Assembly (NCBI GenBank): GCA_017461385.1
Contig: JAFTXZ010000003.1
Location: 146,392-210,391 of the forward strand
Reading direction: 5' to 3'
Source of the DNA: Clostridia bacterium
GTDB lineage: Bacteria > Bacillota > Clostridia > Oscillospirales > CAG-272
DNA: 64,000 nucleotides
Below are positions 16,862 to 44,924 of the stretch, piece by piece. The position numbers and the translations under genes are program-made. The notes under the pieces were generated by a model. That model worked only from the letters and a program-made list of their open reading frames with translations, was not told where the DNA came from and did no database searches. Each line of letters starts with the position of its first letter. The first letter of the stretch is position 1.

Positions 16862-17338
16862 CGCACCAACTAACAACTAGGGAAAGTTAGAAACAAGAAT
16901 TTCTCGTGAACCCCCAAAACTCATACCTCGTTTCGGGGAACCCCTCCCACGGCGCACCGCAGGCAGGGGACGAAGTCGTACTTTGCGTACGTCGAGGTCA
17001 CTGCCGAGGAGCAACACAGAAATGCGACGCTTATCGCACCAACTAACGACTAGGGAAAGTTAGAAGCAAGAATTCCTCGTGAACCCCCAAAAATTCGCAG
17101 AATTTTCGGGGAACCCCTTCCACGGCGCACCGGAGTTGGCAGATGATGACGTACTTTGCGTACGTCGAATTTGTCAGCGAGGAGCAACAACGAATTTCGT
17201 AGCTTATCACTTTACCTAGCATCTAGATGAACAAGAAGCAAACATTTCAAGGCGCACCGCAGGCAGGGGACGAAGTCGTACTTTGCGTACATCGAGGTCA
17301 CTGCCGAGGAGCAACACAGAAATGCGACGCTTATTGCG
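16862..17338. repeat. GC-rich 173-bp tandem repeat array, about 2.7 copies, non-coding
   Basis: Copy 1 is 16862-17034 and copy 2 is 17035-17207. The third unit has a divergent 5' part, but its 3' half (17251-17334) is near-identical to copy 1 (one mismatch). Each full copy carries the hairpin motif GAACCCCCAAAA...TTTCGGGGAAC (16908-16941 and 17081-17114). The array abuts the infB stop codon at 17339-17341. Confidence 0.85.
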
Positions 17339-30589: not shown

Positions 30590-30790
30590 ATGCAAATTTA
30601 GTGAAGTTTTCGCTTATGCGAAAGTGAAGTTGCTTTGCAGTGAAGTTCGTGCTATCGTACGAGTGAAGTTAAGTTTGCCCACCTTGCCGAAGGCAAAACT
30701 TCACGATCTGCAGGATCACTTCACTTACGAAGTAAACTTCACTTGCCCGCAAGGGCAAACTTAGTTGCGTAGTGTCCTTAAGGGCACTAC
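30590..30790. promoter_or_regulatory. Iteron-like array: 4 direct GTGAAGTT motifs, then 3 inverted AACTTCAC motifs, interleaved with at least 6 short perfect palindromes
   Basis: Read directly from the sequence. Palindromes are TTCGCTTATGCGAA, TCGTACGA, TTGCCGAAGGCAA, GATCTGCAGGATC, TTACGAAGTAA, TTGCCCGCAAGGGCAA and GCGTAGTG..CACTACGC. Confidence 0.6.
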
Positions 30791-42400: not shown

Positions 42401-43110
42401 ACGTATAGCTCCTTAAGAATGATTTCTTGACCAAGAGTAACAACTAAAACGTCACCCAAATCCCCAAACCAGTCGCTTCCCTGTGCATAGATACCAGCAC
42501 TATCCGTATTGCCGTCAAACACCTTCCAAACGTTATCAACAGCAGGGTTATAAATGCTACTTGCTTCAACGGTGTAAATGTCATCCTTTGTCAGCTTCTT
42601 TGTGATAAGCTGAGGAAGCGCTTGACTGTTTGTCTTGCCACAGTTTACGCACTCAAAGGTTGCTCTGCCAGCCTGGGTCAGAGTTGGTTTCTGAGAAACA
42701 CTTGCAACCTTTGAAAAATCGTGGTCATCAGACTTTGGAAGCTGCTGCTGAGATTTTAACAATGCATCACACACGGAGCATTTCTTTCCCTCTGTTTTAC
42801 CAAAGGTTTTGCAGGTTGGAGCAACTGCAGGAATAATTTCCTCTGTATGGCCAATTGCGTTTATGTATCTTATTCCTATTTCTCCACAAAGAGTACACTT
42901 ACTGTGCTCCTCGCCTCTTATGTCGCATTTTGGCTCGTAAATTACTTCCCACTCCTCATAATTGTGCTGACAGGTGTCGGGGTTTCCTCCTCCACCTTCG
43001 CCACTTCCCGTCTCAATTGCTGGAGGCTCTTCTCCTCCACCACAGGCAGAGAAAACGCAGACAATTAAAAGCAATGCTATAATTAGTAAGCTTAATTTCT
43101 TTACGTTCAT
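39493..43110 (-). CDS. Giant (about 1205 aa) surface lipoprotein with Cys-rich CxxC repeats, an F5/8 type C (discoidin)-like domain and a C-terminal clan GH-A glycoside hydrolase catalytic domain
   Basis: Lipoprotein signal MNVKKLSLLIIALLLIVCVFSAC. WLELGNEPD is the acid/base NEP motif and VWLTEFGWD the nucleophile TEFG motif of clan GH-A. The start is taken at MNVKK. Confidence 0.65.
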   Translation of the reverse strand: MNVKKLSLLIIALLLIVCVFSACGGGEEPPAIETGSGEGGGGNPDTCQHNYEEWEVIYEPKCDIRGEEHSKCTLCGEIGIRYINAIGHTEEIIPAVAPTCKTFGKTEGKKCSVCDALLKSQQQLPKSDDHDFSKVASVSQKPTLTQAGRATFECVNCGKTNSQALPQLITKKLTKDDIYTVEASSIYNPAVDNVWKVFDGNTDSAGIYAQGSDWFGDLGDVLVVTLGQEIILKELYVYVAGNWTTATVRVKNANGQTLISESVRANASAYGGPGDKIEVFKGEKYRVYTIEVEITSIKESYQTFKLTEIEIHGAKEDTRLLSVDDKHICDHREFVEQMTPSTCVERGTAKYACYCGKTGDYYTPKLVREFTQLVSYTAPTCTEKGQAVYLCTCGAYRRTITLDATGHNYQRFVSYTKAPSISSNGMATYRCVGCNLEEEREVKALALEEIKYLRVTQVNGTQVKLKFNIYTNPVAYDIRYSTSEITSENFDSATQLNATISGNREITATFNLDASLDKCYYVAVRPYSGTNLGTVKCVRVGGNKLIPIDYEQANVYHGEILSSFANLFDEQSDEFRTGSTMPSTVIARNFTDTESKYYNLRLAPIVDLETLHYISSVYLYYADEGYNVTVRWSDTPLDFMSENSVWDGYYTFTTATGWNEIEIGTDTRYIQIVFTDGTAPYEMLTYGYQNGEGDKINTSKNNLPSINEMMGMCGFTAIGGGNTPVDSVICTSVLREYHNFGWAYVESDFPGKASYFSSSGMGNFDQRYAEYVKAGINLIPCIQWDLQKNGVSNKIDEDGVPVRDTEGKLVKGDYWDKFDPNTYYTYADLMFAYSARYGTNTSTALLDAVREHYNDSPTVGLGLVKWLELGNEPDASWHGGIDGYFSAYQLAALTSAGYDGHCSTINTAVSTGTYHFGAKNANTDMGVGMAGISAASNEYITAMCYWMKANRADGKVAIDAFNVHQYMSKAITVAGDKIRYVGMSPEEADLPGILSQLVEIRDKYYKDKEVWLTEFGWDTNQSYATVNSAHAYGEYTGRQVQAMWLTRAYLLLSASGVDKATMYMCEDTGVENEAVGKFGSSGVIGYEYDEDGNVVEFKKDSYYYLYTLKNTLGDYIFTRQIETYDENVMLYEYQNEDGKTAYAVWCPTSDGTKVEDYCVRINSTGATLVENVNGLTEGKKTELEADELGYVKVNVSENPIYIVVD

Positions 43111-43239
43111 TTTTTCTCCTTCTCTTGCTAATATAAGCAAGGATTAAAAGTTTCTAATATAATTATAAAGTATAATAATCGATATTTCAATAATAAAATT
43201 TGATTTCACCTTTAATATAAATATTTTTCTAAAAATATA

Positions 43240-43268
43240 TTGACACGTAGAAAAAAGTGTGATATATT
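43240..43268 (+). promoter_or_regulatory. Sigma-A promoter driving the tRNA-Ser leader transcript
   Basis: TTGACA, 17 nt, TATATT, rightward, about 340 nt upstream of the tRNA. Confidence 0.5.
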
Positions 43269-43326
43269 AATTAAGCAACAAAATTTGTGCTTTTATCATT
43301 TAGTACGGAGTAACGAGAAAATAGCA

Positions 43327-43601
43327 GATTTGAAAAATAAAATTTTTCAAGCCACTTCTCAATTCTGCGTATTAAATCGTAGTAAACCACAATTTTTTCT
43401 ACGGGGTAGCAAAACTTTCGTTTTGTGCTACGGACGGTCCCTTGTGAACAACCTGCGAACCCCCCTAAACTCATTCTTCGTTTTGGGGAACTCCAGTTGC
43501 TCCCAGATGACCTTGTCCTTGCATACGCAGCGGATTTGAAAAATAAAATTTTTCAAGCCACTTCTCAATTCTGCGTATTAAATCGTAGTAAACCACAATT
43601 T
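43327..43601 (+). repeat. 69-bp direct repeat (43327-43395 and 43533-43601) flanking a 137-bp segment that contains the GAACCCCCC...GGGGAAC hairpin (43457-43491)
   Basis: Read directly. Each repeat contains the palindrome TTGAAAAAT-AAA-ATTTTTCAA. The second copy forms a 13-bp inverted repeat (CTGCGTATTAAAT/ATTTAATACGCAG) abutting the tRNA 5' end. Confidence 0.8.
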
Positions 43602-43606
43602 AATAC

Positions 43607-43694
43607 GCAGGGGTATCGAAGCGGTCATAACGAGGCGGTCTTGAAAACCGTTTGGCCAAAAGCCACGTGGGTTCGAATCCCACCCCCTGCGCCA
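43607..43694 (+). tRNA. tRNA-Ser (anticodon UGA) with a long variable arm and encoded CCA
   Basis: Acceptor GCAGGGG/CCCCTGC, anticodon loop CTTGAAA, variable stem TGGCC/GGCCA, T-arm GTGGG-TTCGAAT-CCCAC, discriminator G plus CCA. A terminator follows. Confidence 0.85.
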
Positions 43695-43695
43695 A

Positions 43696-43735
43696 AAACA
43701 AAAAGGACACATCTCGTGTCCTTTTTGTTTTTTTG
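43696..43735 (+). terminator. Terminator after tRNA-Ser
   Basis: AAAAGGACAC-ATCTC-GTGTCCTTTTTG then TTTTTT. Confidence 0.8.
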
Positions 43736-43866
43736 GCTTAGTGGGTGATTCCGAAGACATCTTTGTAAATGCAACGCATTTGCAAATTGGGTGCGCAAGT
43801 CCAACGAAAGCCGTTGTCAGCTTGCTAGCAAAAGGCTCGTTGTGGCTCTTTGCAAAAAGCAAAGCC

Positions 43867-43887
43867 TCCCACCCCCTGCGCCAAAAA
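43867..43887 (+). repeat. 21-bp direct repeat of the tRNA-Ser 3' end (TCCCACCCCCTGCGCCAAAAA), an att-like scar
   Basis: Identical to 43678-43698. Followed by its own terminator hairpin at 43888-43919. Confidence 0.8.
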
Positions 43888-43919
43888 ATTCGACAAGCTT
43901 AGACTTGTCGAATTTTTTT
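43888..43919 (+). terminator. Terminator-like hairpin after the tRNA 3'-end copy
   Basis: AATTCGACAAG-CTTAG-ACTTGTCGAATT then TTTTTT. Confidence 0.7.
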
Positions 43920-44098
43920 ATCCATTGTGAAAGCAATGGCATATCATCACGCATTAGCGTGTATCTCATCACCGAAGGTGTATATCATCAGCCGTGGGCT
44001 GTATTGTACCTTCCCTTTGATACACCAAAATTCAAAGACAGAAATGCTTTGCATTTTCTGTCTTTTTTCATCTTATAAGGGAATTTTTTCTTTATATA

Positions 44099-44164
44099 TT
44101 GACAAATTCTTGAAAATCGTGTATAATTTGGTTGTGAACAAGTTGTTCACGAACAAGTTGTTCG
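44099..44164 (+). promoter_or_regulatory. Consensus sigma-A promoter with two tandem palindromic operators for the TetR gene
   Basis: TTGACA, 17 nt, TATAAT at 44099-44127. Operators GTGAACAAGTTGTTCAC (44134-44150) and CGAACAAGTTGTTCG (44150-44164), plus a third half-site. Confidence 0.65.
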
Positions 44165-44198
44165 CGAACAAGCGAGCTTGATTGGAGGGACTTACAAA

Positions 44199-44924
44199 AT
44201 GGCACACATAAATACACAACGACCAAACACAAGATTGCAAATTATTCAGCTGGCTGCGAAGCTATATATTGAAAACGGATATTCTAAGACCACGAACAAG
44301 GAAATTGCCACACTCTTGGACATTAGCCCTGGAAATATAACCTTTTATTTTCCAACAAAGGACCATTTGCTCTCTGTTTTAGTAGATGAGCTTTGCAACT
44401 TCCAAGAGCTACTAATGGAGCAGGTTGCGCAGGAGGGCAAAAGCTCACTTCTTGCCTATTGCCTTGAGCTAACCTCTATGGTGGCAGCCTGTGAGGATTG
44501 CGCCGTTACAAGGGATTTCTTTGTGTCTGCCTATTCATCAGAGCTAACCCTAAGAAAAATTCGCGAAAACGATACTCAAAAAACAAAAGAGGTTTTTGGT
44601 GAGTTTTGTCCAGATTGGAGTGAGGAAATGTGGCAGGCAACAGAAAATATTGTATCTGGCATTGAGTATGCTACTCTTATGACAAAGGAGCAGGATATTC
44701 CTCTTTCCGTTCAAATTGAAAGAACGCTAAATACTATTATGACCATATATAACGTTCCCGAGACTCTTCGCAAAAGCAAGCTTGAAAAGGTGCTCAAAAT
44801 AGACCAGCACGCACTGGGACAACGAATTCTTGTGGAATTTAAGGAATATATTGAAAAGGTAAACGAAGAAAATCTTAAAAAAGCAATTTGCGACAAGGCA
44901 AAAAAAGCAAGCTCGTCGCATTAG
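44199..44924 (+). CDS. TetR/AcrR-family transcriptional regulator
   Basis: N-terminal HTH LQIIQLAAKLYIENGYSKTTNKEIATLLDISPGNITFYFPTKDHLL. RBS GGAGGG precedes the ATG at 44199. Confidence 0.85.
   Translation: MAHINTQRPNTRLQIIQLAAKLYIENGYSKTTNKEIATLLDISPGNITFYFPTKDHLLSVLVDELCNFQELLMEQVAQEGKSSLLAYCLELTSMVAACEDCAVTRDFFVSAYSSELTLRKIRENDTQKTKEVFGEFCPDWSEEMWQATENIVSGIEYATLMTKEQDIPLSVQIERTLNTIMTIYNVPETLRKSKLEKVLKIDQHALGQRILVEFKEYIEKVNEENLKKAICDKAKKASSSH

Follow-up and report, generated by a model that had tools for sequence, protein, structure and literature searches.

Introduction

Repetitive extragenic palindrome (REP), BIME and REPIN elements, with their RAYT (TnpA-REP) transposases, have been described in Enterobacteria and Pseudomonas (PMC3733652, PMC3116915, PMC6006769). 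The clade of uncultured Clostridia that concerns us here is not represented in the REP surveys that we checked. Small dispersed repeats (SDRs) were reportedly described by Elhai et al. in Genome Research in 2008 from Nostoc and other cyanobacteria. Rickettsia palindromic elements and the pneumococcal BOX, RUP and SPRITE repeats are 100-150 nt long or modular, some of them with terminal inverted repeats and target duplications; they are not known to show loop targeting of the kind considered below. The present analysis concerns a palindromic hairpin module of about 45 nt found upstream of a tRNA-Ser(TGA) gene, and again downstream of infB, in a 64,000-nt stretch (the window) of contig JAFTXZ010000003.1 from the Clostridia assembly GCA_017461385.1. 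The DNA of the window is about 41% G+C, and its nearest database relatives are uncultured gut and rumen Clostridia metagenome-assembled genomes (MAGs) labelled Eubacteriales, Oscillospiraceae or 'Ruminococcus sp.'.

The tRNA-Ser leader holds both the hairpin and a direct repeat with a period of 206 nt. Our preferred reading, to which we give a probability of about 0.7, is that these are two independent features that happen to overlap: the hairpin would be a non-autonomous mobile repeat resembling REPs and SDRs, and the 206-nt periodicity would reflect two decayed copies of tRNA-Ser(TGA).

Results

The hairpin module forms a dispersed family in gut Clostridia

The hairpin core GAACCCCCCTAAACTCATTCTTCGTTTTGGGGAAC lies upstream of tRNA-Ser at 43457-43491 (+ strand). 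The initial annotation of the window had judged it homologous to hairpins close to infB, and this was borne out: the pattern GAACCCCC-N(10-25)-GGGGAAC has three matches in the window (16908, 17081 and 43457, all +) and none in 100 dinucleotide-preserving shuffles. A covariance model built from aligned copies of the module places the two infB-downstream copies at 16900-16949 (+, 61.7 bits; pattern match 16908) and 17073-17122 (+, 59.1 bits; pattern match 17081), the second with a different, fully paired upper stem, and the leader copy at 43449-43499 (+, 43.1 bits, E=2.8e-10). With filters off, the same model found only these three copies in the window, all of which belong to its training set. 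Similarity between the infB and leader loci is confined to 31 nt at 87%, and the common part is therefore the hairpin module and not a larger unit. Of the three, the leader copy is the most diverged, with T at positions -3 and +1 and a T·T replacing an A·C mismatch.

A scan of one genome per species (GTDB representatives) with the pattern GAACCCCCNNAAN{6,20}TTTYGGGGAAC, for which about 8 chance matches are expected by an arithmetic estimate, yielded at least 119 stretches holding at least 126 copies in at least 68 assemblies. Sixty-six of the listed assemblies are MAGs of Clostridia from the guts of animals and humans. A Thermodesulfobacteriota MAG and a Dadabacteria MAG make up the remainder; their flanks differ, and they look like chance matches. 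Hence the earlier suggestion of a dispersed element family of at least two loci was right but understated. Many of the listed copies are no more than a few dozen bases away from the end of a contig, which is what a repeat that breaks assemblies would be expected to show.

The consensus of the module reads CG-N-GAAC-CCCC-A-AAAC-(variable tip)-GTTT-C-GGGG-AAC-CCC over about 45 nt, with a core of 33-38 nt. Flanking positions outside the retrieval pattern are kept: of 109 copies, 95 have C at -3, 94 have G at -2 and 108 have CCC at +1 to +3, the sole exception to the last being the copy in the tRNA-Ser leader. In an alignment of 66 distinct copies, the unconstrained pair above the AAA/TTT stem (columns 23-37) covaries, being CG in 33, AU in 23 and GC in 5, and is unpaired in only two. 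The position below it is unpaired in 54 of the 66, for the most part because of an A·C mismatch. In 63 of the 66 copies a pair forms between the G of the 5' GAAC and the first C past the 3' GAAC, which gives a symmetric AAC/AAC internal loop. The tips range from unpaired CTCG...CTCG loops to fully paired extensions. The loop TCATNCNTC, which the initial annotation took to be conserved, marks one subfamily only; loops and upper stems vary widely.

In 100 loci searched with the covariance model, 139 copies reached E<1e-3, a total that exceeds the yield of the strict pattern there by about 30. Pattern searching beyond the window and covariance modelling, both of which had been proposed at the outset, revealed covariation in the stem and a family that is not confined to the infB and tRNA-Ser loci. 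Rfam has no family for either the hairpin or the leader units described below: at the gathering threshold and at permissive E-values, both loci gave chance-level matches only, and the families that pass in the window are tRNA and Gut-1. Literature searches by sequence string and by topic returned no description of this repeat, and the module is apparently undescribed.

The two infB-downstream copies belong to a tandem array of units of about 173 bp, which occupies the intergenic region where infB and a sugar kinase gene converge. A third unit there (17215-17337) is without the hairpin module. As a separate observation, these units (window 16862-17337) are composite, their 'b' part of about 90 nt being a second repeat family (GGCGCACCG...GACGAAG-hairpin-TCGAGGTC...GAGGAGCAACACAG) with homologues in tandem arrays at L025, L113, L115, L080, L092 and L098 (L numbers are our labels for the stretches compared with the window). 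The sequence of the inner stem of 'b' differs among species, with pairing kept. In the window, copies b1 and b3 are 97% identical and b2 is at 73%.

Insertion sites and proposed spread of the module

Copies of the module are mostly intergenic, and the open reading frames (ORFs) that appear to contain them are short and probably spurious. Where both neighbouring genes are known, 24 copies lie between convergent genes, 16 between tandem genes in the sense orientation, 13 between tandem genes in the antisense orientation and 4 between divergent genes; the module is biased to gene 3' ends and has no orientation preference relative to transcription of the flanking genes.

An all-against-all comparison of flanks found collinear matches without the hairpin, and 23 such filled-versus-empty comparisons were studied in detail. 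The insert measures 43-56 nt in 22 of these and 71 nt in the remaining one, where a whole REP came along. In most of the 23, the empty site can fold into a small hairpin and the junction falls within its loop or next to it, as in GGGTGG-TCGC-CCACCC, GGGGCGACG-TCCT-CGACGCCCC and ACCGC-TGTC-GCGGT. The hosts include GTAG-tagged REP-like palindromes and hairpins just 5' of terminators. In a homologue of the Gut-1 RNA (L047), 46 nt stand in place of the 4-nt loop of hairpin 2 in the Rfam alignment, and because of this insertion the homologue scores 44.2 bits, below the Rfam gathering threshold of 50. By its length of less than 60 nt, its presence or absence at otherwise collinear sites and its insertion within hairpins, the module belongs among very small mobile repeats that target hairpin loops, a grouping by kind and not by homology.

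An enzyme-free route of spread, by gene conversion, template switching or slippage between palindromes, with the copies kept by selection for stable 3'-end hairpins that protect mRNA, appears unlikely to us. It would account for the microhomology at the junctions, which varies from 0 to 6 nt with no fixed target-site duplication, for the tandem copies (L025 and the infB units) and for the bias to gene 3' ends. Against this, the insert boundaries are very uniform, at 43-52 nt in almost every comparison and across unrelated hosts, and hardly any variation is seen across 66 species in the single-stranded GAAC flanks or the A·C mismatch; a mismatch would not be kept by selection for stability alone.

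Scans of viral contigs matched the hairpin pattern in one contig and the tRNA in none; the module is essentially absent from such contigs and appears not to be phage-borne. Past the CCC, the commonest tails are TAC and TAT (30 of 116 copies), the reverse strand starting with GTAGGGG in 19 of 116 and with ATAGGGG in 11, and the other copies vary past the CCC. The GAACCCCC orientation fell on the negative-GC-skew strand in 39 loci and on the other in 23 (p=0.056; 62 loci with an absolute GC skew of at least 0.03), and the + strand of the window, which carries all three of its copies, is one of negative skew; a replication-strand bias is suggested and not established.

Three kinds of sequence that host the module elsewhere deserve description in their own right. 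The window itself encodes a Gut-1 RNA (Rfam RF01706, 53.3 bits) at 30693-30767 on the - strand, with homologues at L047 6463-6581 and L004 5563-5639. GTAG-tagged REP-like palindromes such as GTAGGGGGCGACGTCCTCGACGCCCCG occur in relatives both with and without the module in their loop (L088 144-281; L022 6795-6930; L031 3233-3426; L054 2120-2260). Finally, a conserved element of about 150 nt, AGGGAGRG...hairpin...GCTCCTTCCACCGC-loop-GCGGTCCCCCTCCCTC-terminator, is found in many MAG species and is often a host of the module (L007, L028, L032, L075, L081, L096, L107, L112 and L124; for example L107 60-260). Empty versions of it occur at L119 4858-5060 and L056 4045-4131, and it is absent from the window. 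Its upstream AGGGAGRG segment could compete with the terminator stem for CCCTCCCT, and the element looks like an attenuator or a small RNA.

Promoter, direct repeat and tandem units of the tRNA-Ser leader

The tRNA-Ser(TGA) gene is intact, with an encoded CCA end (43607-43694, +; ARAGORN, and 55.9 bits with the Rfam tRNA model). About 340 nt 5' of it is a promoter-like site of the sigma-70/sigma-A type with an extended -10 (TTGACA-17-TGaTATATT; 43240-43268, +) that agrees with the consensus at 11 of 12 positions and from which transcription would start near 43275. Orthologous tRNA-Ser(TGA) genes are present in two related species, L092 (MAG RGIG8547) and L061 (MAG SGB_680), whose coding DNA is about 67-77% identical to that of the window. 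Both have the promoter TTGACA-N17-GTGATATATTAAGTAAGCAA and two tandem units between promoter and tRNA. Because the same promoter sequence precedes the orthologous gene in two species, the leader is very probably transcribed from it, in agreement with the initial view of a leader set between a good sigma-A promoter and tRNA-Ser.

The direct repeat measures 73 nt with one mismatch and a period of 206 nt (copy A, 43323-43395; copy A', 43529-43601), and it contains the exact 69-nt core that had first drawn attention (43327-43395 = 43533-43601). The window is matched at 100% identity over 43100-44198 by an independent metagenome contig (L001, k=141 assembly), and the direct repeat is therefore not an assembly artefact. 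In a strain whose neighbouring protein is 95% identical, the leader is the same as far as the hairpin, which is present, and the contig ends right after it. The fold of the leader is far more stable than those of shuffled sequences (z=-8.3). Look-up of the neighbouring 1205-aa protein gave no exact record, and its homologues (65-70% identity) do not adjoin tRNA-Ser, so that synteny yielded no further leaders; a metagenome scan with the leader/tRNA junction pattern returned one irrelevant contig only.

The tandem units are clearest in L092, where each is 112 nt long and 108 of 112 positions are identical between the two. Both open with GCAGGGGTA, which is identical to the first nine bases of the tRNA, and their ends (...AAATCCAC...CTGCG) resemble that of the tRNA (...GAATCCCAC...CTGCG). 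They align to the whole of tRNA-Ser, including the anticodon-arm region, with z=4.3 and 5.2, and none of 500 shuffles scored as high. Judged by these alignments, the L092 units are decayed copies of tRNA-Ser (pseudo-tRNAs).

In the window, unit 1 (ACGGAGTAA...; 43296-43399, +) is a short and, by unit alignment, strongly decayed candidate copy that holds repeat copy A; its alignment to tRNA-Ser gives z=3.1, with one of 500 shuffles as high. Unit 2 (43400-43606, +), a second candidate copy, is homologous to the L061 and L092 units and has covarying hairpins; it comprises ACGGGGTAG, hairpin 1 (43406-43431), a long hairpin (43436-43512) with the module at its tip, ATACGCAGCGG and repeat copy A'. 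Homology with the L092 units is found at both ends of the longer window and L061 units. These longer units share, in addition, the GTGA..AA..CTCCC and ATACGCAGCGG blocks and two hairpins whose arms differ in sequence from copy to copy and still pair. The 73-nt repeat makes up the 3' portion of unit 1 and of unit 2. What had been taken for a single duplication, a 206-bp unit plus a partial copy, is better described as two tandem, apparently decayed tRNA-Ser copies in an arrangement common to the relatives. The units are far more alike within a genome than between species, and concerted evolution or repeated re-duplication is therefore indicated.

The leaders of L061 and L092 contain no hairpin module. 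In comparison with the L061 units, window unit 2 has an extra segment of about 48 nt, which is the module, exactly at the TAAA loop of GGTGAG-TAAA-CTCCCC; the module is absent at the homologous GTGAGTAA/ACTCCC loop of L061. It follows that the module inserted secondarily at the tip of a leader hairpin that is older than the insertion, in keeping with its behaviour at other sites, and the link between hairpin and leader that the initial annotation had implied is not supported.

These comparisons also bear on the idea that the hairpin works as a structured RNA element within the tRNA-Ser leader, acting in processing, stability or protein binding and occurring in other transcripts as well, which we consider improbable. 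The sense orientation within a probably transcribed leader, the covariation of the stem, the conserved non-Watson-Crick features and the stability of the leader fold all speak for such an element. It is harder to reconcile with the lack of the hairpin in both orthologous leaders and with the leader copy being the most degenerate in the window. Furthermore, the orientation of copies with respect to their neighbouring genes goes either way, most copies lie at gene 3' ends, a transcript of the infB 3' region would hold the reverse complement, the module is inserted in unrelated hosts, and no Rfam family matches it.

Sequences downstream of tRNA-Ser

A terminator-like hairpin with a T run follows tRNA-Ser at 43700-43734 (+; sequence reading, inverted repeat and fold). 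Next comes a tRNA-Ser-derived unit, psi-X (43735-43887, +), whose last 21 nt (43867-43887) repeat the tRNA 3' end exactly, and then a second terminator hairpin (43883-43918, +), each copy of the tRNA 3' end having a terminator hairpin of its own. At its start, psi-X carries an imperfect inverted copy of the tRNA T-arm/acceptor. Equivalents of psi-X are present in L092 and L130. The region downstream of tRNA-Ser is prone to rearrangement, a hot spot where strains at about 94% identity differ by whole units, one of which is about 390 nt long and GC-rich; the regions compared were window 43695-43925, L002 1-520, L005 1-620, L004 1-53, L092 3009-3245 and L130 7240-7480 (- strand). In L002 and L130, tRNA-Ser 3' halves that start at the anticodon loop adjoin foreign or prophage-like DNA. 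The tRNA-Ser(TGA) gene is an integration hot spot, and this explains the downstream copies and not the upstream units.

All the repeats around tRNA-Ser might alternatively be att-site remnants of integrative elements, and not decayed tandem copies. The exact 21-nt copy of the tRNA 3' end 189 nt downstream fits this proposal, as do the 3' halves beside foreign DNA in L002 and L130 and a similar split in L126. Its reach is limited to the downstream copies: units upstream of the gene open with the tRNA 5' end GCAGGGGTA, and the L092 units align along the whole tRNA, which integrase-mediated duplication of a 3' end does not yield. We regard it as quite unlikely for the leader repeats.

Several further observations concern this region. 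In L004 (GCA_965323265.1), the same terminator is preceded by the 3' end of a transfer-messenger RNA (tmRNA; E=4e-13), and no tmRNA gene was found in the 64-kb window. A tmRNA reading of the downstream unit was tried and rejected, with only a chance match to tmRNA_permuted (10.8 bits, E=8.4) and none at E<=0.01 in L002 or L005. The metagenome contig L126 (400-690, -) carries a tRNA-Ser 5' half up to the anticodon loop, then unrelated DNA and then a complete, different tRNA-Ser. Past the latter is unannotated sequence on the opposite strand. The arrangement may be another case of a tRNA-Ser gene split by an insertion. Farther on in the window, a perfect consensus promoter (TTGACA-17-TATAAT, 12 of 12 positions) precedes a TetR-family gene (44099-44175; the real gene start is at 44199). 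Past this promoter, at 44134-44164, lie the overlapping palindromes GTGAACAAGTTGTTCAC and CGAACAAGTTGTTCG, likely operators of the TetR protein.

The leader-tRNA hairpin

The spacer between unit 2 and the tRNA forms a perfect 13-bp inverted repeat (15 pairs with G·U) at 43571-43610 (+), with a predicted stability of -17.6 kcal/mol. Its arms are 43571-43583 and 43598-43610, and the last four nucleotides of the second arm are nucleotides 1-4 of the tRNA. The inverted repeat fused to the tRNA 5' end was thus exactly as first reported, and it is conserved with compensatory changes in three species: the perfect palindromes that run into the tRNA are CTGCGTATTAAAT / ATTTAATACGCAG in the window, CTGCGTATTTAAT / ATTAAATACGCAG in L092 (-15.3 kcal/mol) and CTGCTTATTTATTTGG / CCAAATAAATAAGCAG in L061 (-17.4 kcal/mol). 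In all three, the hairpin is part of the minimum-free-energy fold of the whole precursor. Three pair positions are changed on both sides and none is broken; these changes were read by eye from the sequences and folds, since a MAFFT alignment of the three junctions misaligned L061. Part of the complementarity comes free, because the preceding unit ends in CTGCG, the 3' acceptor strand of a tRNA, and the tRNA itself starts with CGCAG. The AT-rich rest of the hairpin is not explained in this way.

RNase P needs the acceptor stem of its substrate, and for this reason the leader-tRNA hairpin may plausibly have a role in tRNA 5' processing. Less likely than the broader proposal made for the module in the Discussion is that sequestration of tRNA nucleotides 1-4 by this hairpin would act together with the tRNA-like units, as decoys, in a device controlling how the tRNA-Ser(UGA) precursor matures. 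That the module hairpin is an intrinsic terminator or attenuator can be set aside as highly improbable, since its GC-rich stem within the leader is followed by AACTCC or AACCCC and not by a U tract, and a terminator scan reported no site there.

Discussion

Collectively, our data are consistent with a model in which the module would have spread through a clade of uncultured gut Clostridia by inserting preferentially in or beside the apical loop of existing hairpins, the arms of the host thereby becoming its outer stem. We infer that a trans-acting enzyme copies the module by reading the folded single strand, and that the invariant GAAC flanks, the A·C mismatch and the CG and CCC tags would form the surface that it recognises; a Y1/HUH transposase of the RAYT or IS200 type would be the likeliest candidate. 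In the window, the module would have landed in the loop of a tRNA-Ser leader hairpin, where it is most probably a neutral passenger. The leader would have a history of its own. Two decayed tRNA-Ser copies and the intact gene appear to lie behind one conserved promoter, and the decayed copies, probably homogenised or re-duplicated within each genome, seem to retain the tRNA 5' end GCAGGGGTA and the 3' ...CCAC...CTGCG end. The 13-bp inverted repeat would then be a palindromic spacer leading from the last decayed copy to the real tRNA, and in the precursor it would hold nucleotides 1-4 of the tRNA in a hairpin. More tentatively, the module may exemplify a hitherto undescribed class of ultra-small mobile DNA, of about 45 nt, that targets the apical loops of folded single-stranded DNA hairpins, is moved by an enzyme shared throughout a large clade of uncultured gut Clostridia and colonises Gut-1 RNAs and tRNA leaders without breaking them; for this broader proposal we would offer somewhat less than even odds.

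A number of points weigh against this account of the locus. For the module, conservation of the lower stem is largely by construction, as the retrieval pattern fixed those positions, and the gene contexts come from crude ORF calls. With no fixed target-site duplication, recombination or template switching between repeats is a possible mechanism of spreading. The genes between paired copies in L009 and L082 are housekeeping or metabolic only, with no transposase, and no mobilising gene was found among the 8-kb blocks and one 64-kb window examined. For the leader, the L092 units are recognised as tRNA neither by ARAGORN nor, up to E=5, by the Rfam tRNA model, and a cloverleaf is likewise lacking in the window's units (ARAGORN). 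The tRNA similarity of the longer units of the window and L061, taken alone, is not significant (z=1.2-1.6), so that their interpretation as decayed tRNAs depends on the L092 units together with unit-to-unit homology. The covarying hairpins within the units could mean that they are functional RNAs and not relics. Conservation of the leader-tRNA hairpin is seen in three species, too few for statistics.

If truly mobile and loop-targeted, the module would offer a clean starting point, defined at the sequence level, for identifying the enzyme that mobilises very small palindromic repeats. This problem, still open for cyanobacterial SDRs and partly solved for REPs, would become approachable here in a clade known from metagenomes only. 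Copies of the module break MAG assemblies, many being found at contig ends, and they lengthen otherwise recognisable RNAs such as Gut-1 in L047; annotation pipelines would gain from a model of it. The tRNA-Ser locus appears as a single essential tRNA gene ringed by decayed copies and att-site remnants, and it is relevant to the use of tRNA flanks for delimiting genomic islands.

Comparison with known repeat systems

Several described classes of element can be separated from the module without difficulty. Irregular spacing of the copies rules out a CRISPR-like array, and the GAAC/GAAC flanks are not the RYYYAAC/GTTRRRY of integron attC sites. Miniature inverted-repeat transposable elements (MITEs), which are derived from insertion sequences (IS), have terminal inverted repeats and a fixed target duplication and are typically 100-400 bp long, unlike inserts of 43-56 nt with a variable microhomology of 0-6 nt. 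Rickettsia palindromic elements, BOX, RUP and SPRITE resemble the module in being small palindromes that can land in RNA genes or transcribed regions and leave them undestroyed.

The leader as a whole recalls tandem tRNA arrays and tRNA pseudogenes, with several apparently tRNA-derived units behind one promoter and transcribed spacers that could give stable RNAs. The 3'ETS-leuZ sponge of E. coli is an example of a functional tRNA spacer. The leader differs from such arrays in that its last unit alone is a tRNA, the units before it having lost the cloverleaf and being nearly identical to one another within a genome.

SDRs are, like the module, mobile repeats well under 100 nt long; they reportedly insert into existing hairpins and lengthen them, can be nested and make no classical target duplication. 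The two are unrelated in sequence and in phylum. The module, at about 45 nt against 21-27 nt for SDRs, is also itself a complete hairpin with an internal loop.

With REPs the module shares the form of a short imperfect palindrome, an extragenic location, the bias to gene 3' ends, a high copy number with occasional clustering, and conserved single-stranded tags beside the stem; its 139 copies in 100 loci make it a short, dispersed, extragenic, multi-copy palindrome in the REP sense. It differs from REPs, which carry a conserved GTAG (or CGTC) tetranucleotide at one end, in that a GTAG tag is seen in a minority of copies only (reverse strand GTAGGGG in 19 of 116) and in that it is found inside other hairpins, REPs among them. 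Module copies are single or in direct tandem, with no inverted pair seen, whereas REPINs are inverted doublets, and no RAYT was identified alongside the module in the 8-kb blocks and the 64-kb window. Even without REPIN doublets or a consistent GTAG tag, the module is closest to the REPs and the cyanobacterial SDRs.

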